Source: Escherichia coli
GTDB lineage: Bacteria; Pseudomonadota; Gammaproteobacteria; Enterobacterales; Enterobacteriaceae
DNA: 64,000 nt
NCBI RefSeq assembly: GCF_030013595.1
Contig: NZ_CP122768.1
Reading direction: 5' to 3' (one strand)
A program made the position numbers and the translations under genes. This document shows, piece after piece, positions 4,688-36,926 of this stretch. The notes beneath the pieces were generated by a model. It had not been told where the DNA came from, ran no database searches, and was given only the letters and a program-made list of their open reading frames with translations. The first letter of the stretch is position 1. Each line of letters begins with the position of its first letter.

Positions 4688-5659
4688 TTAATGACAGTTC
4701 GGAATATCAGCATCAGTGAGTTGGGTTGTCGCCAGCACAATCTCACGTTCAAAGCCCTGCTCCAGCATGCGCAAGGCAATTTTAATGGCTTGTTCATGCA
4801 TGCCTTCCTGCAAACCTTCTAATTTCCCCTCCTGCCAACCTTCAATTTTACCTTCCTGCCAGCCTTCAATCTTACCTTCCTGCCAGCCAATTTGATGCCC
4901 TTCCTGCCGCAGCCGCTCAGCAATAGTCATCAATCTCTCCTTTTGTAGTGGTGAACGTTCGGCAATCTCCTGAATAAAACGGGTGAAACGGGAGGTATCG
5001 CCGCATTGCAGCAGATAATTAAACAGCGTTTGTAGCTGGCTGTCATTAGTGAAGCCTCTAACCAAAAGCGTGGTGATCCTGTCGACCATACCGATTAAAT
5101 CGCGGTCGCGAATATGCTTTTGAATCAGTTCAAGCAGAGCTATACGCCGATGTTGCATGATCTCATCGTCAGGTACGATGGTGATATCCACCAACGGAAA
5201 AGCTTCGGTGTACAACTGCCGGGCAAGTTGCGGATCGTCAAACTCATCCAGCCAGTTGAGTGAGTACGGGTAGGGCGAGGTTTCGCCATGATAAAACAGC
5301 AATGGCACCACCAGCGGAACTCTGTCATAGCCTTTATCCAGGTGACGCTGCATGGCGGCAGTGGCATAGCGCATTAGCCGAAAAGCCATATTCTTTTCTG
5401 CAGAGCTTTGATGTTCAATCACGCAGTAGATATAGCCTTCACTGTCGCTGGTTTCCACAGACCACAAAACATCCGAGTAGTAAGCGCGTAAACTTTTTTC
5501 AATAAAGCTGGTGGGTTCCAGGCGTAAAGTTTGCAGGTTGCAAAGCTTGCGCAGCGGCTCTGGTAGATGTATTTCCAGAAAATCCCGAGCGGTTTCGGGT
5601 GTGAACATAAAGGTTTTAAACACCGCATCATGCGGGGAGGAGGTTGTTGATTCGGTCAT
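4688..5659 (-). CDS. rpnB: Rpn-family (YhgA-like, PD-(D/E)XK) recombination-promoting nuclease
   Basis: 323-aa ORF with an N-terminal D..E-H-Q nuclease-like motif (YIYCVIEHQ) and a C-terminal WQEGKxEG repeat tail. An internal AAAAGGAGAG + ATG (MTIAERL..) near 4930 sits in frame with the tail. Confidence 0.8.
4801..4896. repeat. four 24-nt tandem units encoding the octapeptide repeat tail of RpnB
   Basis: Units at 4801..4824 (degenerate), 4825..4848, 4849..4872 and 4873..4896. Confidence 0.7.
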
Positions 5660-15673: not shown

Positions 15674-15928
15674 TCACAACTCGATTTCAATATCGCCTTT
15701 TGCCCGGCAACAACAGGGCAAAATTTCCCCCGGCTGAATAAAGGCTAACGGTTCGGCAATCCAGTCCACCTGGCCTGCAACAAGGCGCGTGCGACAGGAA
15801 CCGCAGTAACCTTCGCGGCACTGGTACTCAACCGCCACATTGTGGGATTCCAGCGCCGCCAGAAGGGAAGGGTGTTCATCCTGGCACAGCAGTTGTGTGC
15901 CAGTGATGCGCAGGGTAACGCGAGCCAT
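15674..15928 (-). CDS. yfaE: 2Fe-2S ferredoxin associated with ribonucleotide reductase
   Basis: 84-aa ORF with Cys cluster (CREGYCGSC..C); start overlaps the nrdB stop. Confidence 0.88.
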   Translation of the reverse strand: MARVTLRITGTQLLCQDEHPSLLAALESHNVAVEYQCREGYCGSCRTRLVAGQVDWIAEPLAFIQPGEILPCCCRAKGDIEIEL

Positions 15929-17058
15929 CAGAGCTGGAAGTTACTCAAATCGTCGGTGTCCACTTCCGAGTCAATCTGCCCGACCAGATAAGAACTGACT
16001 TCCACTTCCTGCGGAGCAACCTGCACGTTATCAGACACCAGCCAGGTATTGATCCACGGGATCGGGTTGGAGCGAGTCTGGAACGGCAGATCCAAACCGA
16101 CTGCCTGCATGCGGATATTGGTGATGTATTCAACGTACTGGCAGAGAATGTCTTTATTCAGACCAATCATCGAACCGTCACGGAACAGATAATCCGCCCA
16201 GTCTTTCTCTTGCTGTGCCGCCTGGACAAACAGGTCATAGCATTCCTGCTTACATTCTTCGGCAATTTCCGCCATCTCCGGATCATCCGCGCCGCTGCGC
16301 AGCAGATTCAGCATATGCTGAGTACCGGTCAGGTGCAGGGCTTCGTCGCGGGCAATCAGGCGAATAATTTTGGCGTTACCTTCCATCAGCTCACGTTCTG
16401 CAAAGGCAAAGGAACAAGCAAAGCTGACGTAGAAGCGGATCGCTTCCAGCGCGTTAACGCTCATCAGGCAGAGATACAGTTTTTTCTTCAGCTCGCGCAG
16501 GCTAACGGTTACGGTTTTACCGTTAACGGTGTGGGTACCTTCGCCCAGCAGATGCCAGTAGCTGGTCATTTCGATCAGCTCATCGTAATAGCTGGAGATC
16601 CCTTCCGCACGTTTCTGGATCTGCTCGTTGGTGACGATATCATCAAACACAACGGACGGATCGTTAACGATATTACGAATGATATGGGTATAAGAACGAG
16701 AGTGAATGGTTTCTGAGAACGCCCAGGTTTCGACCCAGGTTTCCAGTTCAGGGATCGAGATCAGCGGCAGCAGTGCCACGTTCGGGCTGCGACCCTGAAT
16801 GGAGTCCAGCAACGTCTGATATTTCAGGTTGCTGATAAAGATGTGTTTTTCGTGTTCAGGCAGTGCCTGGTAATCGATACGGTCACGAGAAACGTCAACT
16901 TCTTCCGGACGCCAGAAGAAAGAGAGCTGCTTTTCGATCAGCTTTTCGAAGATGTCATATTTTTGCTGATCGTAGCGAGCCACGTTGACCGGCTGACCAA
17001 AGAACATCGGTTCTTTGAGCTGATCATTTTTCGTCTGTGAAAAGGTGGTATATGCCAT
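15928..17058 (-). CDS. nrdB: ribonucleotide reductase class Ia beta subunit
   Basis: ORF trimmed to the ATG at 17058 ([14 protein letters not shown]..); 376 aa; radical site region [14 protein letters not shown]. Confidence 0.92.
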
Positions 17059-17079
17059 GAATGTGTCCTGTTGGGAGTT

Positions 17080-17198
17080 TAATGCCGGATAAGGCATTTT
17101 ACGCCGCATCCTGTGCCTGATGCGACGCTGGCGCGTCTTATCAGGCCTACAAACCGAGCCGTATGCCGGATAAGGCGTTCACGCCGCATCCGGCATCT
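17080..17198. repeat. REP cluster (BIME) in the nrdA-nrdB spacer
   Basis: Three REP-type palindromes (gccggataaggc..gccgcatcc, gatgcgacgctggcgcgtcttatcaggcctac, gccggataaggcgttcacgccgcatccggc). Confidence 0.8.
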
Positions 17199-17203
17199 CA
17201 ATA

Positions 17204-19489
17204 TCAGATCTTACATGCGCCGCTTTCGCAGCCATCGTCCTGGATTGACGGTACCAGATCGTCCTGCGCGTCTTCAGCGCCGTCACGGGTGTTCTGATAA
17301 TACAGCGTTTTGACCCCGAATTTGTAGGCGGTGAGCAGGTCTTTCAGCAGTTGCTGCATCGGCACTTTTCCTGACGGGAAGCGTGACGGATCGTAGTTGG
17401 TGTTAGCAGAGATCGACTGATCGATAAATTTCTGCATGATACCCACCAGTTGCAGGTAGCCATCGTTACCCGGCATTTCCCACAGCAGCTCATAGGCGTC
17501 GTGCAGATGCTCGTAGTCCGGCACCACCTGGCGCAGAATACCGTCTTTCGACGCTTTGATGCTGACGTAACCGCGCGGCGGTTCAATACCGTTAGTGGCG
17601 TTAGAGATCTGCGAAGAGGTCTCGGACGGCATCAGAGCAGAAAGCGTGGAGTTACGCAGGCCGTGCGTTTTGATTGACTCACGCAGTGCTTCCCAGTCGT
17701 AATGCAGCGGCTCATTAGCGATGGCATCCAGATCTTTCTTATAGGTATCGATCGGCAGGATCCCTTTCGCGTAAGTGGTTTCGTTAAACCACGGGCACGC
17801 GCCTTGCTCTTTCGCCAGCTCATTAGAGGCTTTCAGCAGGTAATACTGAATAGCTTCGAAGGTTTTATGCGTCAGGTTGTTGGCGCTGCCGTCGGAGTAG
17901 CGTTTACCGTGCTTCGCCAGGTAGTAAGCGAAGTTGATCACACCAATACCCAGCGTACGACGACCCATCGCTCCACGTTTGGCGGCCGGGATCGGGTAAT
18001 CCTGATAGTCCAGCAGCGCGTCGAGTGCGCGTACCGCCAGAATCGCCAGCTCTTCCAGTTCATCCAGGCTATTAATTGCGCCCAGGTTGAAAGCAGACAG
18101 CGTACACAGCGCGATTTCACCGTTCTCGTCGTTGACATCATTCAGCGGTTTGGTCGGCAGGGCGATTTCCAGGCACAGGTTAGACTGGCGCACTGGCGCG
18201 ATGGCCGGATCAAACGGGCTATGGGTATTGCAGTGGTCAACGTTCTGAATATAGATACGACCGGTAGACGCACGTTCCTGCATCATCAGCGAGAACAGCT
18301 CAACGGCTTTCACACGCTGCTTGCGGATGCTGTCGTCTTTCTCATATTTGGTGTACAGGCGTTCAAACTCTTCCTGATCGGCGAAGAACGCGTCGTACAG
18401 CCCCGGCACGTCGGACGGGCTGAACAGAGTGATATCTTCACCTTTCAGCAGACGGGTATACATCAGTTTGTTGATTTGTACCCCGTAGTCCATATGACGC
18501 ACGCGGTTGCCTTCAACCCCACGGTTGTTTTTCAACACCAGCAGGCTTTCCACTTCCAGATGCCACATCGGGTAGAACAGCGTAGCCGCACCGCCACGCA
18601 CACCGCCCTGAGAGCAGGATTTCACCGCTGTCTGGAAATGCTTATAGAACGGAATACAACCGGTATGGAACGCTTCGCCACCGCGAATCGGGCTACCCAG
18701 CGCACGAATACGCCCGGCATTGATGCCGATCCCGGCACGCTGGGAAACGTATTTAACAATCGCGCTGGAGGTGGCGTTAATGGAATCCAGGCTGTCACCG
18801 CACTCGATCAGTACGCAGGAGCTGAACTGACGAGTCGGGGTACGCACGCCGGACATGATTGGCGTCGGCAGCGAAATTTTAAATGTGGAAACCGCGTCGT
18901 AAAAACGCTTCACGTATTGCAGGCGCGTTTCACGCGGGTAGTTCGAGAACAGGCACGCGGCAACCAGAATATAAAGGAACTGGGCGCTTTCGTAGATTTC
19001 GCCGGTCACGCGGTTCTGTACCAGATATTTGCCTTCCAGCTGCTTAACGGCAGCATAAGAGAAGGTCATATCACGGTCGTGATCGATAAACGTGTCCATC
19101 TGCTTGAACTCTTCTTCCGTGTAGTCTTCCAGCAGATGATTATCGTATTTGCCCATCTCGACCATTTTCACCACGTGGTCGTACAGCGCAGGCGGCTCAA
19201 ACTGGCCGTAGGCTTTTTTACGCAGGTGGAAGATCGCCAGGCGCGCGGCGAGATACTGATAATCCGGCGCATCACGGGAGATCAGGTCTGCGGCAGCCTT
19301 AATAATGGTTTCGTGGATGTCAGAGGTCTTGATACCGTCATAAAACTGAATGTGGGAGCGCAGTTCGACCTGGGAAATCGAAACGTTATGCAGTCCTTCT
19401 GCCGCCCAATCCAGAACGCGATGGATTTTGTCGAGATTGATGCGCTCTGTGCTACCGTCGCGCTTTGTCACCAGCAGATTCTGATTCAT
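17204..19489 (-). CDS. nrdA: ribonucleotide reductase class Ia alpha subunit
   Basis: 761-aa ORF with N-terminal ATP-cone region; adjacent to nrdB. Confidence 0.93.
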   Translation of the reverse strand: MNQNLLVTKRDGSTERINLDKIHRVLDWAAEGLHNVSISQVELRSHIQFYDGIKTSDIHETIIKAAADLISRDAPDYQYLAARLAIFHLRKKAYGQFEPPALYDHVVKMVEMGKYDNHLLEDYTEEEFKQMDTFIDHDRDMTFSYAAVKQLEGKYLVQNRVTGEIYESAQFLYILVAACLFSNYPRETRLQYVKRFYDAVSTFKISLPTPIMSGVRTPTRQFSSCVLIECGDSLDSINATSSAIVKYVSQRAGIGINAGRIRALGSPIRGGEAFHTGCIPFYKHFQTAVKSCSQGGVRGGAATLFYPMWHLEVESLLVLKNNRGVEGNRVRHMDYGVQINKLMYTRLLKGEDITLFSPSDVPGLYDAFFADQEEFERLYTKYEKDDSIRKQRVKAVELFSLMMQERASTGRIYIQNVDHCNTHSPFDPAIAPVRQSNLCLEIALPTKPLNDVNDENGEIALCTLSAFNLGAINSLDELEELAILAVRALDALLDYQDYPIPAAKRGAMGRRTLGIGVINFAYYLAKHGKRYSDGSANNLTHKTFEAIQYYLLKASNELAKEQGACPWFNETTYAKGILPIDTYKKDLDAIANEPLHYDWEALRESIKTHGLRNSTLSALMPSETSSQISNATNGIEPPRGYVSIKASKDGILRQVVPDYEHLHDAYELLWEMPGNDGYLQLVGIMQKFIDQSISANTNYDPSRFPSGKVPMQQLLKDLLTAYKFGVKTLYYQNTRDGAEDAQDDLVPSIQDDGCESGACKI

Positions 19490-19566
19490 GTATGTCGTAC
19501 CTGTTTTTGGAATTCTTTCCGCAATAGTTTCATGCAGACTACCTGTAGTGAGGGAAGCTGCTTAGA

Positions 19567-19612
19567 ACACTATATATAGGGGGTATGTTTGGGATTCACT
19601 GCAAGATAGTGT
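19567..19612 (-). promoter_or_regulatory. candidate NrdR box pair in the nrdAB control region
   Basis: CCCCTATATATAGTGT (sense, 19567..19582) matches the recalled NrdR box consensus at 14 of 16 positions; a weaker box lies at 19597..19612, about 30 bp centre to centre. Confidence 0.35.
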
Positions 19613-19631
19613 GAAAATGGCCCTCTTGCAA
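19603..19631 (-). promoter_or_regulatory. candidate nrdAB sigma70 promoter (-35 TTGCAA, 17 bp, -10 TATCTT)
   Basis: Hexamers with 17-bp spacing sit about 110 nt upstream of the nrdA ATG. Confidence 0.35.
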
Positions 19632-19642
19632 GTGCATAACTT

Positions 19643-19651
19643 TGTGGATAA
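19643..19651 (-). promoter_or_regulatory. DnaA box TTATCCACA upstream of the nrdAB promoter
   Basis: Perfect 9-mer on the minus strand (plus strand TGTGGATAA). Confidence 0.55.
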
Positions 19652-20184
19652 CTCAGGAAGGAAAAAGTGGCTTTCGCGCACCTTAGGTCAGACAAGGTGT
19701 CCGGGAAAGTCAATGGGAAGAGAAAAATTTGTTAAAAATAACTGTTCGGCGATTTCTTGAACGGAAGAATAGGTTAGATAAATTGATATAGATGGTTTAT
19801 TAATCTTTTGGCTAATGATTGCAAAAATTGATCTAAGCACGAATCATCGCATAATCTGATGTATCAGTTCTGGTCAATATATAAGCGAATGTAAGCGATT
19901 GTTGATATCGAAATGGTTGTTTTCTCTTCGGTTATTGTTAAATGCGAAGCCATTTTGTTAATTTACCTTATATTATAAGAAAATTATTCATTACTTTAAT
20001 TCAGTTTAAATATAACTAATATCCCTTAAGGTGATTAACTTGAATTATGACGCACTGATATTATTCATGAAATAATAACAAAATAGCCATTGCACGGGGT
20101 TGAACAAATTACAAAAGAAAAATAACCCATATCGTATAATGCGATTAAATATGCCGTCTTATAGAAAATGATGGTCAGATTAAT

Positions 20185-23100
20185 ATGCGGATTATTTTTC
20201 TACGCAAGGAGTATTTATCTTTACTCCCGTCAATGATTGCGTCTCTTTTCTCTGCTAACGGTGTCGCGGCGGCCATTGATTTATGCCAGGGATATGATAT
20301 CAAAGCGAGTTGTCACGCCAGCAGGCAAAGCCTTTCAAGCTTTACGCAGGACTGGAGCATCGCCGATGGGCAATGGCTGGTTTTTTCGGATATGACTAAT
20401 AACGCCAGCGGTGGGGCCGTATTTTTGCAACAAGGAGCGGAGTTTTCTCTATCGCCAGAAAATGAAACTGGAATGACTCTGTTTGCCATTAATACTGTCT
20501 CAGGAGAATATAATAACGGCGGGGCAATATTTGCTAAAGAAAACTCAACGCTGAATCTTACTAATGTTATTTTTTCCGATAACGTTGCAGGTGGCTATGG
20601 TGGCGCAATCTATTCTTCTGGTACTAACGATACCGGTGTCGTCGATTTAAGTGTCACTAACGCCGTGTTTCGCAATAACATCGCTAATGACGGCAAAGGT
20701 GGTGCAATTTATACCATCAACAATGACGTCTATTTAAGTGAAGTTATTTTTGACAATAACCAGGCATATACATCAACAAGTTACAGCGATGGCGATGGGG
20801 GCGCAATCGATGTCACCGATAATAATAGCGATATCACGCATCCGTCAGGTTTCACAATAATAAATAACACCGCATTTACAAATAACACTGCCGAAGGTTA
20901 TGGCGGGGCAATTTATACCAATAGCGTGACGGCTCCCTATCTTATTGATATTTCGATTGATGACAGCTACAGCCAGAACGGCGGCGTGTTACTCGATGAG
21001 AACAATAGCGCGGCAGGTTATGGGGATGGTCCTTCCACTGCGGCGGGCGGCTTTATGTATCTCGGCTTAAGTGAAGTTACCTTTGATATTGCCGACGGAA
21101 AAACGCTGGTTATCGGCAATACAGAGAATGACGGAGCTGTTGACTCTATTGCTGGTACCGGGGTAATCACCAAAACAGGTTCCGGCGATCTGGTACTTAA
21201 TGCAGATAACAATGACTTTACTGGCGAGATGCAGATAGAAAACGGTGAAGTTACCCTGGGCCGCAGCAACTCCCTGATGAATGTCGGCGATACGCATTGC
21301 CAGGACGATCCGCAAGACTGCTACGGTCTGACGATAGGGAGTATTGATCAGTATCAGAATCAGGCTGAGCTAAACGTTGGCTCGACCCAACAAACTTTTG
21401 TGCACGCATTGACGGGCTTTCAGAATGGCACTTTAAATATCGATGCTGGTGGCAACGTTACTGTTAATCAGGGCAGTTTTGCTGGCACCATCGAAGGTGC
21501 TGGTCAGCTCACCATTGCGCAAAACGGCAGCTACGTGCTGGCAGGGGCTCAGTCGATGGCGCTAACTGGCGATATAGTCGTTGATGATGGTGCGGTGCTT
21601 TCACTGGAAGGCGACGCGACAGATCTCGCCGCTCTCCAGGACGATCCGCAGTCGATTGTGGTAAACGGCGGTGTGCTCGATCTCTCTGATTTCTCCACCT
21701 GGCAGAGCGGTACATCATACAACGATGGCCTTGAAGTCAGCGGCAGCGGCGGTACGGTTATCGGCAGTCAGGATGTGGTGGATCTCGCAGGTGGCGACAA
21801 TTTGCATATCGGCGGCGACGGTAAAGATGGCGTCTACGTGGTGATCGATGCGGGCGACGGGCTGGTTAGCCTGGCAAACAATAATAGTTACCTGGGCACC
21901 ACGCAAATCGCTTCCGGTACGCTGGTGGTGAGTGACAACTCGCAGCTTGGCAATACCGACGAAAACCGTCAGCTCATCTTTACTGATAGCCAACAACAAA
22001 GTGAGATGGAAATTACCGCTGACGTTGATACTCGTTCAGAGGCAGCAGGTCACGGGCGTGATATTGAAATGCGCGCCGACGGTGAAGTGGCGGTTGATGC
22101 GGGGGTAGACACGCAGTGGGGCGCACTGATGGCTGACAGCAGCGGGCAGCATCAGGATGAGGGTAGCACATTGACGAAAACGGGGGCGGGTACGCTGGAA
22201 CTGACCGCCAGCGGTACAACGCAGTCGGCGGTACGTGTCGAAGAAGGCACCCTGCAAGGTGATGTTGCGGATATCTTCCCTTATGCTTCGTCGCTGTGGG
22301 TCGGTGACGGGGCAACGTTCAAGACTGGCGCGGATCAGGATATTCAGTCAATTGATGCTACTTCCAGCGGCACTATCGACATCAGCGATGGTACGGTTTT
22401 GCGCCTGACCGGGCAGGATACTTCCGTCGCCCTTAATGCCTCACTGTTTAACGGCAATGGGACGCTGGTGAATGCCACCGATGGCGTGACGTTGACAGGC
22501 GAGCTTAATACCAACCTTGAAACTGACAGCCTGACCTATCTTGCCGACGTGACGGTTAATGGTGATCTGACCAATACGTCCGGTGCGGTTAGCCTGCAAA
22601 ATGGCGTCGCTGGCGATACGCTGACGGTAAACGGTGATTATACCGGCGGCGGTACGCTACTGCTCGATAGCGAATTAAACGGCGATGACTCGGCAAGTGA
22701 CCAACTGGTGTTGAACGGTAATACTGCTGGCAACACGACCGTGGTAATTAATCCCATTACGGGTATTGGTGAGCCGACATCTACAGGTATTAAAGTGGTT
22801 GATTTCGCAGCCGATCCAACGCAATTTCAAAACAATGCGCAGTTCAGTCTGGCGGGCAGCGGCTACGTCAATATGGGCGCGTATGACTACACGCTGGTGG
22901 AAGATAACAACGACTGGTATCTGCGATCGCAAGAAGTAACGCCACCATCGCCACCTGATCCAGACCCGACTCCCGATCCTGATCCCACGCCGGATCCTGA
23001 TCCAACACCCGACCCGGCCCCGGACCCTACGCCTGCCTACCAGCCGGTGTTGAATGCCAAAGTTGGTGGATATTTTAATAACCTGCGGGCGGCAAATCAG

Positions 23101-23943
23101 GCGTTTGTGATGGAGCGACACGATCACGCTGGTGGCGATGGTCAGACGCTGAATTTACGTGTTATCGGCGGACGTTATCATTACACAGCAGCGGGGCAAC
23201 TGGCTCAGCATGAAGACACTTCTACGGTGCAGCTTAGCGGCGACTTGTTTAGCGGGCGCTGGGGCGCGGATGGCGAGTGGATGCTTGGGGCGGTTGGTGG
23301 CTACAGTGATAACCAGGGCGACAGCCGCTCGAATATGACCGGAACTCGCGCCGATAACCAGAACCACGGTTATGCCGTTGGTCTGACCTCAAGCTGGTTT
23401 CAGCACGGTAATCAGAAGCAGGGGGCCTGGCTGGATAGCTGGCTGCAATACGCGTGGTTTAACAATGATGTTTCCGAACAAGACGATGGCACAGATCATT
23501 ACCATTCGTCGGGGATTATCGCCTCGCTGGAAGCGGGGTATCAGTGGTTACCGGGGCGTGGTGTGGTGATTGAACCGCAGGCGCAGGTGATTTATCAGGG
23601 CGTGCAGCAGGATGATTTTACCGCCGCTAACCATGCGCGCGTGTCACAATCGCAGGGTGATGATATTCAAACGCGGCTGGGTTTACACAGCGAATGGCGT
23701 ACCGCTGTTCATGTCATACCAACATTAGATCTGAATTATTATCACGATCCCCATGCGACGGAAATTGAAGAAGATGGCAGCACTATCAGTGACGATGCGG
23801 TGAAGCAACGGGGGGAAATAAAAGTGGGAGTAACGGGCAATATCAGCCAGCGAGTGTCCCTGCGCGGCAGCGTGGCGTGGCAGAAAGGGAGTGATGATTT
23901 TGCCCAGACGGCAGGGTTTTTGTCGATGACGGTGAAATGGTAG
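20185..23943 (+). CDS. yfaL: type V autotransporter adhesin
   Basis: 1252-aa ORF: signal peptide, G/N/T-rich beta-helix passenger repeats, proline-rich linker, C-terminal beta-barrel ending in W. Confidence 0.88.
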   Translation: MRIIFLRKEYLSLLPSMIASLFSANGVAAAIDLCQGYDIKASCHASRQSLSSFTQDWSIADGQWLVFSDMTNNASGGAVFLQQGAEFSLSPENETGMTLFAINTVSGEYNNGGAIFAKENSTLNLTNVIFSDNVAGGYGGAIYSSGTNDTGVVDLSVTNAVFRNNIANDGKGGAIYTINNDVYLSEVIFDNNQAYTSTSYSDGDGGAIDVTDNNSDITHPSGFTIINNTAFTNNTAEGYGGAIYTNSVTAPYLIDISIDDSYSQNGGVLLDENNSAAGYGDGPSTAAGGFMYLGLSEVTFDIADGKTLVIGNTENDGAVDSIAGTGVITKTGSGDLVLNADNNDFTGEMQIENGEVTLGRSNSLMNVGDTHCQDDPQDCYGLTIGSIDQYQNQAELNVGSTQQTFVHALTGFQNGTLNIDAGGNVTVNQGSFAGTIEGAGQLTIAQNGSYVLAGAQSMALTGDIVVDDGAVLSLEGDATDLAALQDDPQSIVVNGGVLDLSDFSTWQSGTSYNDGLEVSGSGGTVIGSQDVVDLAGGDNLHIGGDGKDGVYVVIDAGDGLVSLANNNSYLGTTQIASGTLVVSDNSQLGNTDENRQLIFTDSQQQSEMEITADVDTRSEAAGHGRDIEMRADGEVAVDAGVDTQWGALMADSSGQHQDEGSTLTKTGAGTLELTASGTTQSAVRVEEGTLQGDVADIFPYASSLWVGDGATFKTGADQDIQSIDATSSGTIDISDGTVLRLTGQDTSVALNASLFNGNGTLVNATDGVTLTGELNTNLETDSLTYLADVTVNGDLTNTSGAVSLQNGVAGDTLTVNGDYTGGGTLLLDSELNGDDSASDQLVLNGNTAGNTTVVINPITGIGEPTSTGIKVVDFAADPTQFQNNAQFSLAGSGYVNMGAYDYTLVEDNNDWYLRSQEVTPPSPPDPDPTPDPDPTPDPDPTPDPAPDPTPAYQPVLNAKVGGYFNNLRAANQAFVMERHDHAGGDGQTLNLRVIGGRYHYTAAGQLAQHEDTSTVQLSGDLFSGRWGADGEWMLGAVGGYSDNQGDSRSNMTGTRADNQNHGYAVGLTSSWFQHGNQKQGAWLDSWLQYAWFNNDVSEQDDGTDHYHSSGIIASLEAGYQWLPGRGVVIEPQAQVIYQGVQQDDFTAANHARVSQSQGDDIQTRLGLHSEWRTAVHVIPTLDLNYYHDPHATEIEEDGSTISDDAVKQRGEIKVGVTGNISQRVSLRGSVAWQKGSDDFAQTAGFLSMTVKW
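22941..23037 (+). repeat. proline-rich PDPT repeat linker in yfaL
   Basis: Encodes PPSPPDPDPTPDPDPTPDPDPTPDPAPDPTP; about three 18-nt units. Confidence 0.7.
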
Positions 23944-23949
23944 CTGCTT

Positions 23950-23998
23950 TGCGCCCGGCATTGTAGCCGGATGTGGTGCGAGCACCTTATCCGGCTAA
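23950..23998. repeat. REP-like palindromic element
   Basis: gccggatgtggtgcgagcaccttatccggc between the yfaL and ubiG 3' ends. Confidence 0.5.
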
Positions 23999-24003
23999 CA
24001 ATT

Positions 24004-24726
24004 TTATTTATTCTGCGTGTGCAGCATATAGTTCACATCCACGCCGGGGCCGAGCTTAAAGGAATTAGTGATCGGGTTGTAATGCAGCCCAGTCATATGC
24101 CGCTCTTTAAGGCTTGTCTGATCCACCCAGCCCAGCAGTTCTGCCGGTTTAATAAACTTCTTCACATCATGTGTACCTTTAGGCACCATGCGCAAAATAT
24201 ATTCCGCGCCGACTACCGCCATCAGCCATGACTTGCCGTTGCGGTTAAGCGTCGAGAAAAAGACATCGCCGCCCGGTTTCACCAGTTGCGCACAGGCTCT
24301 TACCACTGACTGCGGATCGGGCACGTGCTCCAGCATCTCCATGCAGGTCACCACATCATACTGCTCGGCATGTTTTGCCGCGTGCTCTTCCACGGTTTCC
24401 TGCACGTAATCCACCTGAATGCCGCTTTCCAGCGCGTGCAGCTTTGCCACCTGCAATGGCTCAAAGCCCATATCCAGACCGGTCACCGTCGCGCCTTCGC
24501 GCGCCATACTCTCGGCCAGAATGCCGCCGCCACAACCGACATCGAGTACCTTTTTGCCAAATAAACCGCCAGCACGCTCGGCAATATAGCCCAGACGCAG
24601 CGGGTTAATGCGGTGCAGCGGTTTGAACTCACCTTCAAGATCCCACCAGCGGGAGGCGACAGCTTCAAATTTAGCGATCTCTTCGTGGTCTACGTTATGG
24701 TTTACCGGCGATTTTTCGGCATTCAT
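24004..24726 (-). CDS. ubiG: ubiquinone biosynthesis O-methyltransferase
   Basis: ORF trimmed to the ATG at 24726 ([11 protein letters not shown]..); SAM-binding motif [12 protein letters not shown]; 240 aa. Confidence 0.9.
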
Positions 24727-24872
24727 TGGCACTTCTACTCCGTAATTGGCAAGACAAACGAGTATATCAGGCATTGGATGTGAATAAAGCGTATAGGTTT
24801 ACCTCAAACTGCGCGGCTGTGTTATAATTTGCGACCTTTGAATCCGGGATACAGTAGAGGGATAGCGGTTAG

Positions 24873-27500
24873 ATGAGCGACCTTGCGAGAGAAATTACAC
24901 CGGTCAACATTGAGGAAGAGCTGAAGAGCTCCTATCTGGATTATGCGATGTCGGTCATTGTTGGCCGTGCGCTGCCAGATGTCCGAGATGGCCTGAAGCC
25001 GGTACACCGTCGCGTACTTTACGCCATGAACGTACTAGGCAATGACTGGAACAAAGCCTATAAAAAATCTGCCCGTGTCGTTGGTGACGTAATCGGTAAA
25101 TACCATCCCCATGGTGACTCGGCGGTTTATGATACGATCGTCCGTATGGCGCAGCCATTCTCGCTGCGTTACATGCTGGTAGACGGTCAGGGTAACTTCG
25201 GTTCCATCGACGGCGACTCTGCGGCGGCAATGCGTTATACGGAAATCCGTCTGGCGAAAATTGCCCATGAACTGATGGCCGATCTCGAAAAAGAGACGGT
25301 CGATTTCGTTGATAACTATGACGGCACGGAAAAAATTCCCGACGTCATGCCAACCAAAATTCCTAACCTGCTGGTGAACGGTTCTTCCGGTATCGCCGTA
25401 GGTATGGCAACCAACATCCCGCCGCACAACCTGACGGAAGTCATCAACGGTTGTCTGGCGTATATCGATGATGAAGACATCAGCATTGAAGGGCTGATGG
25501 AACACATCCCGGGGCCGGACTTCCCGACGGCGGCAATCATTAACGGTCGTCGCGGTATTGAAGAAGCTTACCGTACCGGTCGTGGCAAGGTATATATCCG
25601 CGCCCGTGCCGAAGTGGAAGTTGACGCCAAAACCGGACGTGAAACCATTATCGTCCACGAAATTCCGTATCAGGTAAACAAAGCGCGCCTGATCGAGAAG
25701 ATTGCGGAACTGGTAAAAGAAAAACGCGTGGAAGGCATCAGCGCGCTGCGTGACGAGTCTGACAAAGACGGTATGCGCATCGTGATTGAAGTTAAACGCG
25801 ATGCGGTCGGTGAAGTTGTGCTTAACAACCTCTACTCCCAGACCCAGTTGCAGGTTTCTTTCGGTATCAACATGGTGGCATTGCATCATGGTCAGCCGAA
25901 GATCATGAACCTGAAAGACATCATCGCGGCGTTTGTTCGTCACCGCCGCGAAGTGGTGACTCGTCGTACTATTTTCGAACTGCGTAAAGCTCGCGATCGT
26001 GCTCATATCCTTGAAGCATTAGCCGTGGCACTGGCGAACATCGACCCGATCATCGAACTGATCCGTCATGCGCCGACGCCTGCAGAAGCGAAAACTGCGC
26101 TGGTTGCTAATCCGTGGCAGCTGGGCAACGTTGCCGCGATGCTCGAACGAGCGGGCGATGATGCTGCGCGTCCGGAATGGCTGGAGCCAGAGTTCGGCGT
26201 GCGTGATGGTCTGTACTACCTGACCGAACAGCAAGCTCAGGCGATTCTGGATCTGCGTTTGCAGAAACTGACCGGCCTTGAGCATGAAAAACTGCTCGAC
26301 GAATACAAAGAGCTGCTGGATCAGATCGCAGAACTGCTGCGTATTCTTGGCAGTGCCGATCGTCTGATGGAAGTGATCCGCGAAGAGCTGGAACTGGTTC
26401 GTGAACAGTTCGGTGACAAACGTCGTACTGAAATTACTGCCAACAGCGCCGACATCAACCTGGAAGATCTGATCACCCAGGAAGATGTGGTTGTGACGCT
26501 CTCTCACCAGGGCTACGTGAAGTATCAGCCGCTTTCTGAATACGAAGCGCAGCGTCGTGGCGGGAAAGGTAAATCTGCCGCACGTATTAAAGAAGAAGAC
26601 TTTATTGACCGACTGCTGGTGGCGAACACCCACGACCATATTCTGTGCTTCTCCAGCCGTGGTCGCGTCTATTCGATGAAAGTCTATCAGTTGCCGGAAG
26701 CCACTCGTGGCGCGCGTGGTCGTCCGATCGTCAACCTGCTGCCGCTGGAGCAGGACGAACGTATCACTGCGATCCTGCCGGTGACCGAGTTTGAAGAAGG
26801 CGTGAAAGTCTTCATGGCGACCGCTAACGGTACCGTGAAGAAAACTGTCCTCACCGAATTCAACCGTCTGCGTACCGCCGGTAAAGTGGCGATCAAACTG
26901 GTTGACGGCGATGAGCTGATCGGCGTTGACCTGACCAGCGGCGAAGACGAAGTAATGCTGTTCTCCGCTGAAGGTAAAGTGGTGCGCTTTAAAGAGTCTT
27001 CTGTCCGTGCGATGGGCTGCAACACCACCGGTGTTCGTGGTATTCGTTTAGGCGAAGGCGATAAAGTCGTCTCTCTGATCGTGCCTCGTGGCGATGGCGC
27101 AATCCTCACCGCAACGCAGAACGGTTATGGTAAACGTACCGCAGTGGCGGAATACCCGACTAAGTCGCGTGCGACGAAAGGGGTTATCTCCATCAAGGTT
27201 ACCGAACGTAACGGTTTAGTGGTTGGCGCGGTGCAGGTAGATGACTGCGACCAGATCATGATGATCACCGATGCCGGTACGCTGGTACGTACTCGCGTTT
27301 CGGAAATCAGCATCGTGGGCCGTAACACCCAGGGCGTGATCCTCATCCGTACTGCGGAAGATGAAAACGTAGTGGGTCTGCAACGTGTTGCTGAACCGGT
27401 TGACGAGGAAGATCTGGATACCATCGACGGCAGTGCCGCGGAAGGGGACGATGAAATCGCTCCGGAAGTGGACGTTGACGACGAGCCAGAAGAAGAATAA
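24873..27500 (+). CDS. gyrA: DNA gyrase subunit A
   Basis: 875-aa ORF; active-site region AAMRYTEIR; QRDR GDSAVYD with Ser83 and Asp87; acidic C-terminal tail. Confidence 0.95.
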
Positions 27501-36149: not shown

Positions 36150-36926
36150 ATGCGAAAGATTTTTCTTCCGTTGTTACTGGTGGCGCTTTCGCCTGTTGCC
36201 CATGGCGAAGGTGTGCAGGAAGTCGAGATTGATGCACCGCTCTCTGGCTGGCATCAGGCAGAGGGCGAAGATGCCAGTTTTTCACAATCGATCAATTACC
36301 CGGCGTCGTCCGTCAACATGGCAGATGATCAAAATATCTCAGCGCAGATCCGCGGCAAAATAAAGAATTATGCTGCGGCGGGTAAAGTTCAGCAGGGCCG
36401 GCTGGTGGTCAACGGTGCCAGTATGCCGCAGAGAATTGAATCCGATGGTTCATTTGCACGCCCTTATATTTTCACTGAAGGCAGCAACAGCGTGCAGGTC
36501 ATCAGCCCGGATGGGCAAAGCCGACAAAAAATGCAGTTTTACTCAACGCCGGGCGCTGGAGCGATCCGCGCGCGTTTACGGCTGGTTCTCTCCTGGGACA
36601 CGGACAATACCGATCTCGACCTTCACGTTGTTACGCCCGATGGCGAACACGCCTGGTACGGTAACACCGTGCTGAAAAACAGTGGTGCACTGGATATGGA
36701 TGTCACGACGGGGTACGGACCCGAGATCTTCGCCATGCCAGCGCCAGTTCACGGACGTTATCAGGTGTATATCAACTACTATGGCGGACGCAGCGAAACG
36801 GAATTGACGACCGCCCAACTGACGCTGATCACCGATGAAGGATCGGTCAATGAGAAACAGGAAACATTTATTGTACCGATGCGTAATGCTGGCGAGCTGA
36901 CGCTGGTGAAAAGTTTTGACTGGTGA
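36150..36926 (+). CDS. yfaP: exported protein of unknown function
   Basis: 258-aa ORF; ATG 4 nt after the yfaQ stop; signal peptide MRKIFLPLLLVALSPVAHG. Confidence 0.8.
   Translation: MRKIFLPLLLVALSPVAHGEGVQEVEIDAPLSGWHQAEGEDASFSQSINYPASSVNMADDQNISAQIRGKIKNYAAAGKVQQGRLVVNGASMPQRIESDGSFARPYIFTEGSNSVQVISPDGQSRQKMQFYSTPGAGAIRARLRLVLSWDTDNTDLDLHVVTPDGEHAWYGNTVLKNSGALDMDVTTGYGPEIFAMPAPVHGRYQVYINYYGGRSETELTTAQLTLITDEGSVNEKQETFIVPMRNAGELTLVKSFDW

Follow-up and report, generated by a model that had tools for sequence, protein, structure and literature searches.

Among the described systems closest to the proline-rich tract of the Escherichia coli autotransporter YfaL (EhaC), TibA, the self-associating autotransporter of enterotoxigenic E. 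coli, has a "proline-rich domain" (residues 627-677) between its junction region and its membrane domain (PMC3835316). The two tracts hold the same position, run to tens of residues, and are rich in proline; however, the TibA domain has another sequence, is longer (about 50 aa), and sits in a glycosylated protein of another passenger subgroup, the linkers being compared here by description. The AIDA-I-type relatives, including MisL, ShdA, and IcsA of Group 8, have transport units homologous to that of YfaL. Several of them (P0085, P0128, P0178, and P0209, among others) carry near-identical PDPDPT/PEPTP motifs, but length and motif are free to vary across these relatives, as in PEPEP, PVDPVD, TPVDPDDGGSDV, and KPEIKP; AIDA-I has about 11 residues at the linker position, and some homologues have almost no linker there. 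In pertactin of Bordetella, the copy number of the proline-rich repeat regions R1 and R2 varies between alleles (PMC8931430). Like the YfaL tract, these are proline-rich passenger repeats whose number differs within the species, with allele-dependent copy number and a slow evolutionary timescale. Unlike it, R1 and R2 are described as variable beta-helix loops rather than as a tether that follows the autochaperone, their motifs are different, and the pertactin passenger is cleaved off the porin domain. The proline-rich linker of TonB is described as a polyproline II rod, extended and bridging a defined distance (PMC5413942, citing Kohler 2010). The (Glu-Pro)n(Lys-Pro)n repeats of TonB likewise belong to an E. 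coli envelope protein and lead from a membrane anchor to a distal domain, and the X-Pro dipeptide periodicity that marks them is present in the YfaL tract, but TonB is unrelated, and its linker is periplasmic, of mixed acidic and basic character, and much longer. The Ala-Pro hinge of OmpA, again unrelated and periplasmic, is a further X-Pro repeat of an E. coli envelope protein that runs from the membrane part to a distal domain. Against this background, the YfaL tract belongs to a familiar and unremarkable class of autotransporter spacers.

We analyzed the tract in a window of 64,000 nucleotides of E. coli DNA. The first-pass annotation, made from the sequence alone, had named the gene as yfaL, and the name held: the translation scores 2767 bits on the NCBIfam equivalog profile NF007285 (curated cut-off, 1459), over residues 1-1252 of the protein and positions 1-1250 of the profile and thus at full length, and the locus is annotated as yfaL, in single copy, in 5,419 of 5,426 complete E. 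coli genomes. The annotated CDS of strain CFSAN018748 is identical to the yfaL of the window. The gene lies at the conserved nrdA / ubiG-gyrA position, flanked by nrdA (17204-19489, minus strand), ubiG (24004-24726, minus strand), and gyrA (24873-27500, plus strand). CFSAN018748, a 100% match, also has a private duplication of ~770 bp in nrdB-nrdA that is absent from the window, so that its annotation does not carry over to the window left of ~16617. NCBIfam profiles for MisL, ShdA, and the TIGR01414 barrel domain (E 1e-111) match YfaL as well, and Pfam places PATR and PMP repeats upstream of the AC_1 domain. The N-terminus, MRIIFLRKEYLSLLPSMIASLFSANGVAA, looks like a typical Sec signal peptide, and display kits employ a 28-aa YfaL signal peptide (PMC13101318). 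With a barrel, a predicted pore-plugging helix, and an autochaperone domain, YfaL/EhaC has the features of the classical type and is an AIDA-I-family classical (type Va) autotransporter adhesin of E. coli. The parts of the gene that concern us are as follows.

20185..23943, plus strand: yfaL/ehaC CDS, 1252 aa plus stop (ORF list, translation, NCBIfam NF007285)
22564..22896, plus strand: autochaperone domain (aa 794-904), which closes the beta-helical passenger at its C-terminal end (Pfam PF18883 AC_1, E 2.7e-18)
22939..23034, plus strand: proline-rich acidic linker, aa 919-950, TPPSPPDPDPTPDPDPTPDPDPTPDPAPDPTP (32 residues, 53% Pro, net charge -8)
23056..23100, plus strand: predicted alpha-helix plugging the barrel pore, aa 958-972 (AlphaFold2, pLDDT above 90)
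23146..23937, plus strand: C-terminal beta-barrel translocator, aa 988-1251 (Pfam PF03797 at aa 991-1230, E 4.2e-34; AlphaFold2 strands)

The annotation had put the tract between the passenger and barrel regions, and that placement holds. The tract begins downstream of the conserved WYLRS motif, which ends at residue 915, and separates the autochaperone from the pore helix and the barrel. An AlphaFold2 model of a 472-aa fragment (mean pLDDT 93.5) has the helix at fragment positions 178-192 and a C-terminal antiparallel run of strands at 208-471. DSSP assigned neither helix nor strand to aa 920-950 of this model, and pLDDT over the tract was 76-87, which is above what would be expected of a freely extended tether. 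In Foldseek comparisons, the barrel of the model superimposed on the AIDA-I structure 4MEE with a TMt of 0.93 and an rmsd of 1.5 Å, and the model matched the IcsA autochaperone structures 3ML3 (TMt 0.70) and 5KE1. The YfaL autochaperone aligns to residues 29-138 of 4MEE and to 3ML3, and the pore-helix region aligns with the 4MEE helix from chain residue 150. The alignment to 4MEE covers the sequence to either side of the tract but breaks off over aa 918-959, where 11 AIDA-I residues face 42 residues of YfaL. By this alignment, YfaL carries the tract as an insertion that the solved AIDA-I transport unit lacks.

The annotation had further described about three 18-nt repeat units encoding PDPDPT, and its peptide PPSPPDPDPTPDPDPTPDPDPTPDPAPDPTP matches residues 920-950 of the 1252-aa ORF. 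Its limits of 22941-23037 contain the right sequence but are out of codon register: the start sits 2 nt inside codon 919 and the end takes in A951, the tract itself running from T919 to P950. Tandem Repeats Finder reported 22957-23012 with a period of 18, 3.1 copies, 78% matches, and a score of 63, and a separate repeat search found three copies at 18 nt spacing. The units, together with the degenerate one that follows them, are these.

22957..22974, plus strand: repeat unit 1, GATCCAGACCCGACTCCC, encoding DPDPTP (repeat searches, codon comparison)
22975..22992, plus strand: repeat unit 2, GATCCTGATCCCACGCCG, encoding DPDPTP, the unit missing from allele L018 (repeat searches, allele alignment)
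22993..23010, plus strand: repeat unit 3, GATCCTGATCCAACACCC, encoding DPDPTP (repeat searches, codon comparison)
23011..23034, plus strand: degenerate fourth unit, encoding DPAPDPTP (allele comparison, codon comparison)

The fourth unit holds an excess of 6 nt (2 aa) over the common K-12-type allele, which has DPEPTP there. At the DNA level, units 1-3 are 72-83% identical, and all of the differences between them (3-5) fall at synonymous third codon positions. The tract accounts for 17 of the 33 prolines of YfaL within its 32 residues, the remaining protein being 1.3% Pro, and the X positions of its (X-Pro)n are mostly Asp or Thr. Fourteen consecutive prolines occupy alternate positions; when the protein was shuffled 5,000 times, such runs averaged 1.6 and never exceeded 4, so that the pattern is far beyond chance. 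We also considered and rejected a noncoding or antisense feature, since the differences between units follow the codon phase of the sense strand. No Rfam family was found in 19500-24900 on either strand, and the antisense ORF at 22675-23127, whose translation is of low complexity and rich in Arg, Ile, and Trp, is unsupported.

To follow the tract among E. coli alleles, we sampled the 5,419 complete genomes systematically in two rounds, one of 40 and one of 60 rows. The annotation had held such repeats to be prone to length variation, with an invariant linker as the outcome that would speak against it. Linker length is not invariant: seven lengths occur (18, 22, 24, 26, 30, 32, and 34 aa), the indels all fall in the tract, and they recur between near-identical flanks. 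However, a single length dominates, with 30 aa in ~64% of the sampled genomes, 24 aa in 22%, and the 32 aa of the window in 7%; the steps are mostly multiples of 6 nt, one X-Pro pair, rather than whole 18-nt units; and there is no sign of rapid switching. Among the sampled alleles, 99 span the tract, and for each of them the length difference from the window is a multiple of 6 nt. In an alignment of 20 alleles, 51 of 51 gap columns lie inside the tract and 0 in the 405 nt of flanks, and nucleotide diversity rises from 0.06 in the flanks to 0.112 in the tract, about 1.8-fold. Alleles with 0, 1-2, and 4 differences in the 405 nt flank can differ by 6 aa in the linker. Whole units are also gained or lost: L018 has the linker of the window type but lacks exactly one unit of 18 nt, and a whole-unit difference separates L020 from L013. 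These in-frame gains and losses of repeats make the tract an indel hotspot of this part of yfaL. The proline pattern is largely kept. Among 14 different linker peptides from E. coli, only three single substitutions touch the alternating prolines (positions aligned to P924-P950), and the X positions are variously D, T, E, A, I, N, or S. One allele, L014, has lost part of the tract together with the end of the autochaperone, and its CDS is still annotated as intact.

An initial protein search had returned mostly truncated fragments from Shigella sonnei and E. coli, along with few distant relatives, and many yfaL contigs in draft assemblies stop in or beside the tract. An expanded repeat in S. 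sonnei, suspected from contigs that end in the tract, is probably not the cause. Fragments end at stepwise positions from residue 869 to 938, with none past 938, one contig starts on the C side at residue 948, and another break, a sharp one, occurs at residue 303. Insertions or assembly breaks in a pseudogene would account for this pattern better than an expansion would.

For the wider family, we used an exhaustive search of representatives, which gave 120 relatives of pairwise identity <=50%, and delimited the linker in each by two anchor motifs. At the equivalent position, the 120 relatives have a linker of 20-113 aa (median, 39 aa) with a median Pro content of 28%. It reaches at least 20% Pro in 102 of the 120, is net negative in 115, and has runs of at least four alternate prolines in 57. 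The linker sequences are mutually unrelated despite this shared composition, and their X positions are Glu, Val, or Thr as often as Asp. Judged from these alignments, composition is conserved family-wide, and sequence and length are not.

Taken together, we favor, as the probable reading, that the tract is a semirigid, extended, proline-rich spacer between the domains of YfaL/EhaC; both the extended conformation and the spacer function are what we infer from the observations above. In mature YfaL, the tract would leave the barrel at its extracellular mouth, after the autochaperone cap and directly before the pore helix. Proline at alternate residues would block helix or sheet, and eight negative charges would add repulsion, so that the tract would most likely form a polyproline-II-like, semirigid tether. 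At 3.1 Å per residue, such a tether would measure about 10 nm in the window and about 5.6-10.5 nm across the E. coli alleles. It would keep the passenger clear of the barrel and of the inner lipopolysaccharide layer, and during secretion it would stay slim and unfolded as the passenger's C-terminal end is threaded across the outer membrane. The imperfect 6-nt and 18-nt repeats could undergo slippage or microhomology recombination, and this would produce the in-frame gain or loss of X-Pro pairs or of whole units. That tract length sets the reach of the passenger from the cell is plausible, on the strength of the (X-Pro)n composition and of the analogy with TonB and TibA.

The same observations can be read in other ways. 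The tract could be chiefly an aid to biogenesis, acting as the static limb of the hairpin in the barrel-BamA pore or as a block on premature folding in the periplasm, with its length outside the cell incidental. We hold this to be credible but unlikely, and it overlaps with the spacer reading. In the hairpin model of type Va secretion, the passenger enters the pore beginning with the segment beside the pore helix, and the YfaL tract is immediately N-terminal to that helix; the retention of composition, and not of sequence or length, in the 120 relatives would suit such a role, as would the fact that surface-display scaffolds retain residues 786-1250 and with them the linker (PMC13101318). Yet a very short or nonproline junction is enough for AIDA-I and some homologues to be secreted, which indicates that the secretion mechanism does not require a long spacer. 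Alternatively, the tract could be neutral, low-complexity filler at a domain boundary, its length driven by slippage and selection acting only on reading frame and solubility. The spread of lengths within E. coli and in the family, the elevated nucleotide diversity, and the intact annotation of L014 all lean that way. We nevertheless regard it as doubtful, because the alternate prolines and the acidic character persist both between alleles and in relatives of <=50% identity, nearly all representatives have a linker, with a minimum of 20 aa between the anchor motifs, and the three units differ at synonymous sites only. Identical unit peptides with synonymous differences, together with the kept prolines, argue for selection on the peptide pattern. 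The variation in length is another matter: with 30 aa dominant and lengths spanning only 18-34 aa, it may be neutral in E. coli. Expression of yfaL is poor under laboratory conditions, which complicates any reading of the selective context.

A surface-exposed, immunodominant variable epitope, with polymorphism driven by host antibody, would resemble the R1 and R2 regions of pertactin and their variable repeat number (PMC8931430), and the tract is indeed more diverse than its flanks. One report counts yfaL among the positively selected genes of E. coli but places no selected sites in the linker (PMC9110714); the variation is limited, one length being found in about 64% of genomes, and a unit peptide that is kept while its DNA drifts is the opposite of diversifying selection, so we consider this very improbable. 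Equally far-fetched, or slightly more so, are the ideas that seven or eight serial Asp-Pro bonds serve as an acid-labile fuse that sheds the passenger in the stomach or that linker length is matched to the thickness of the O-antigen or capsule of the strain. Asp-Pro is the peptide bond most prone to acid hydrolysis, but the frequency of Glu, Val, or Thr at the X positions of the relatives argues against a family-wide role specific to Asp-Pro. As for a contingency locus, in which repeat slippage would switch yfaL on and off by phase variation, the only point in its favor is the presence of a tandem repeat in a surface-adhesin gene. Slippage in an 18-nt unit or its 6-nt subunit preserves the frame, the copies are imperfect (just 72-83% identical), and every sampled allele that spans the tract is in frame; we rejected such a switch as having next to no chance of being correct.

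The main value of these results is one of careful annotation, in that they describe a genuine, composition-conserved spacer and a local indel hotspot of yfaL. For users of the YfaL 786-1250 display scaffold, natural linkers of 18-34 aa are available to try. Strain typing should expect length differences in yfaL in 6-nt steps, and analyses of draft assemblies should expect trouble at the tract, because many yfaL contigs end in or next to it. If it is true that linker length tunes exposure through the lipopolysaccharide layer, YfaL would be a straightforward natural case of an adhesin tuned through the length of its spacer.

The open reading frame carrying the repeat scored 2767 bits against the NCBIfam equivalog NF007285 (cut-off 1459), confirming the first-pass naming of the gene as YfaL. 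It shows every testable feature of YfaL/EhaC, and likewise of the AIDA-type classical autotransporters, and is flanked by nrdA on one side and ubiG-gyrA on the other. The annotation "AIDA-I family autotransporter adhesin YfaL/EhaC" occurs at the same locus, in single copy, in 5,419 of 5,426 complete E. coli genomes, and reviews count YfaL, MisL, ShdA, IcsA and EhaA among the outer-membrane-anchored adhesins (PMC9289746). The gene and its proline-rich tract were delimited as follows.

20185-23943, + strand: yfaL/ehaC open reading frame, 1252 residues (NCBIfam NF007285 equivalog)
22939-23034, + strand: proline-rich linker TPPSPPDPDPTPDPDPTPDPDPTPDPAPDPTP, residues 919-950 (translation of the open reading frame 20185-23943)
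22957-22974, + strand: repeat unit 1, DPDPTP (codon-level reading)
22975-22992, + strand: repeat unit 2, DPDPTP (codon-level reading)
22993-23010, + strand: repeat unit 3, DPDPTP (codon-level reading)
23011-23034, + strand: degenerate fourth unit, DPAPDPTP (codon-level reading)

Tandem Repeats Finder reported 3.1 copies of period 18 at 22957-23012, and a repeat search found three copies at 18-nt spacing. The peptide originally read as PDPDPT repeats corresponds exactly to residues 920-950, its coordinates lying within 2-3 nt of the codon boundaries. Proline occupies 14 successive alternate positions in the tract, where shuffling the protein 5,000 times gave at most 4, and these 32 residues hold 17 of the 33 prolines of the whole of YfaL; the repeat is therefore genuine and far from chance. 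At the DNA level the three DPDPTP units are just 72-83% identical, with all differences at third codon positions. On the opposite strand, a 150-residue open reading frame with a GTG start (22675-23127, -) crosses the linker and translates into a low-complexity string rich in Arg, Ile, Trp and Gly, as expected from the complement of Pro and Asp codons; it is unsupported as a gene. A search for RNA families in and around yfaL found none.

Domain prediction bore out the proposal that the tract links passenger and barrel, and refined it. Pfam assigns residues 794-904 to the autochaperone domain AC_1 and 991-1230 to the autotransporter barrel, and the solved AIDA-I transport unit (PDB 4MEE) aligns to residues 808-917 and 960-1246, with 11 residues between the aligned blocks in AIDA-I versus 42 in YfaL. 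An AlphaFold2 model of residues 781-1252 (72 input sequences, mean pLDDT 93.5) showed neither helix nor strand at 920-950, then a helix (958-972) and the strands of the barrel (988-1251); the modelled barrel superposed on 4MEE with a TMt of 0.93 and an rmsd of 1.5 Å, and the N-terminal part matched the autochaperone of IcsA. Taken together, the domains, the alignment and the model identify the tract as the tether joining the C-terminal passenger cap to the barrel-plugging helix.

To compare linker lengths within the species, we sampled the 5,419 genomes systematically, once for 40 rows using a 601-nt query and once for 60 rows using a 301-nt query, and read 20 alleles directly. Linkers of 18, 22, 24, 26, 30, 32 and 34 residues were found. 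Among the 59 tract-spanning alleles of the second sample, the K-12-type length of 30 residues accounted for ~64%, 24 residues for 22%, the window's 32 residues for 7%, and 22, 26 and 34 residues for 2-3% each. Lengths differed by multiples of 6 nt in 99 of 99 sampled tract-spanning alleles. When the 20 alleles were aligned, all 51 gap columns fell within the tract and none in the 405 nt of flanks, and nucleotide diversity, about 0.06 in each flank, reached 0.112 in the tract. Length change recurred among close relatives: alleles of 24 and 18 residues (L013 and L020) have identical flanks, one of 24 residues (L011) differs at 1-2 flank sites from two of 30 (L015, L004), and one of 26 (L018) differs at 4 flank sites from one of 32 (L001), relative to which it lacks exactly one 18-nt unit. 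Since gaps are confined to the tract and length change is recurrent, the tract is an indel hotspot, as the first-pass annotation had guessed. We rejected a contingency (phase-variable) locus: gain or loss of a unit is frame-preserving, its copies are imperfect and a single length predominates, and a check for the hallmark of phase-variable repeats was negative.

Several individual alleles and assemblies deserve separate mention. In E. coli VTB97022v (NZ_CP178670.1 1606199-1607314), roughly 60 codons have been lost in frame (window ~22811-23005). The deletion fuses FAADPT (window GCCGATCCAACG, near 22811) to repeat unit 3 (GATCCAACA), apparently by recombination at GATCCAAC microhomology; the last part of the autochaperone domain is gone, together with half of the linker on its N-terminal side, and the 3585-nt yfaL is still annotated as an intact CDS. 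The partial YfaL set (loci L021-L025; proteins P0013 and P0024-P0116) comes from short-read drafts of S. sonnei and E. coli. Many of these proteins, mostly from S. sonnei, have ends laddered over residues 869-938, with none past 938; a C-side fragment (P0013) begins at residue 948, and a second, sharp break lies at residue 303. In S. sonnei the allele starts PPNPNPTPDPDPTPDP. The breaks could reflect a pseudogene insertion or a failure of assembly or coverage in the repeat. Because fragments end at the tract, draft assemblies are unreliable for counting the repeat. E. coli CFSAN018748 (L026) matches the window at 100% over the yfaL linker region and at just 98.2-99.3% overall. That strain carries a ~770 bp tandem duplication of the nrdA 3' end and nrdB 5' end (L026 15159-17058; compared window span 15928-17402), where the annotation shows two RNR pseudogene fragments; the duplication is absent from the window, which has a single intact nrdB (about 15928-17058, -) and is not colinear with CFSAN018748 left of about 16617. 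The yfaP gene, annotated as frameshifted there, maps from L026 to 36150-36925 (+) in the window. Between yfaU and glpC, a 323-residue open reading frame (4688-5659, -), annotated as an ISNCY-family transposase in the related strain, bears a short tandem peptide repeat, EGWQEGKI x3, near its C-terminus; it corresponds to yfaD of K-12.

A comparison of 14 distinct E. coli linker peptides showed that the alternating prolines (aligned to P924-P950) are kept, barring three single substitutions (P to Q in L015; P to S in L017 and in P0001). The intervening residues are D, T, E, A, I, N or S, and net charge ranges from -4 to -8. CCG predominates in the rest of yfaL, whereas the linker uses the four Pro codons almost evenly (5, 5, 4, 3), which keeps the DNA repeat imperfect. 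The kept prolines, the same unit peptide despite synonymous differences and the even codon use argue for constraint on the pattern itself. The substitutions break the periodicity in L015 (strain 132, from cattle; DPDPTQDP) and L017 (strain E200086; DSDP). The latter has the longest linker, 34 residues, in a yfaL annotated as a pseudogene without its C-terminus; the same linker occurs in fragments P0002 and P0003 of Escherichia sp. KS167_9B with linker and C-terminal region intact.

A first protein search returned mostly contig-end fragments. When 1.84 billion representative proteins were searched exhaustively using residues 781-1252 as query, 637 relatives emerged at E <= 1e-30, and the linker, taken from the conserved W-Y-L motif to the helix start, was delimited in 120 of the best 150. 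Its length ranged from 20 to 113 residues (median 39); median Pro content was 28%, with at least 20% in 102 of 120; alternate-Pro runs reached at least 4 in 57 and at least 10 in 19; and 115 linkers carried a net negative charge. Beyond this the sequences are unrelated, with motifs including PEPEP, PVDPVD, KPEIKP and TPVDPDDGGSDV, some near-identical to PDPDPT. The family thus keeps linker composition, but neither sequence nor length, which is the hallmark of a spacer on which selection acts through physical properties.

Its alternating prolines and many acidic side chains would preclude helix or sheet, and the tract is expected to be extended and polyproline-II-like. We liken it in this respect to the X-Pro region of TonB, described in PMC5413942 (citing Kohler 2010) as an extended polyproline II rod whose length suffices to cross the periplasm. 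Among described systems, TibA offers the nearest parallel: its "proline-rich domain" (residues 627-677) sets the junction region apart from the membrane-embedded domain (PMC3835316). The two agree in architecture and position and differ in sequence and length, and the YfaL linker shows every testable feature of a TibA-type spacer. We consider a semi-rigid acidic tether the probable role, against which stand the almost absent linkers of AIDA-I and some relatives and a pLDDT of 76-87 in the tract, above expectation for a free tether.

The same properties would also keep the first-translocated segment unfolded during secretion. This is the leading rival role, compatible with tethering, and we regard it as rather unlikely to be the main one. 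Purely neutral filler is a little less plausible still, as conserved periodicity and charge speak against it. Antibody-driven variation, for which pertactin is the precedent (PMC8931430), could draw on the listing of yfaL under positive selection (PMC9110714), but seems very improbable. Scarcely any weight falls on an acid-labile release site formed by the serial Asp-Pro bonds or on length alleles matched to surface-glycan thickness.

Earlier work already covers yfaL, its architecture and linkers of this class; the catalogue of natural YfaL linker length alleles and their recurrence is the one, modest addition. At 3.1 Å per residue, the linkers of the E. coli alleles would measure ~5.6-10.5 nm, and that of the window ~10 nm, and such a tether would keep the passenger clear of the barrel mouth and the inner lipopolysaccharide layer.
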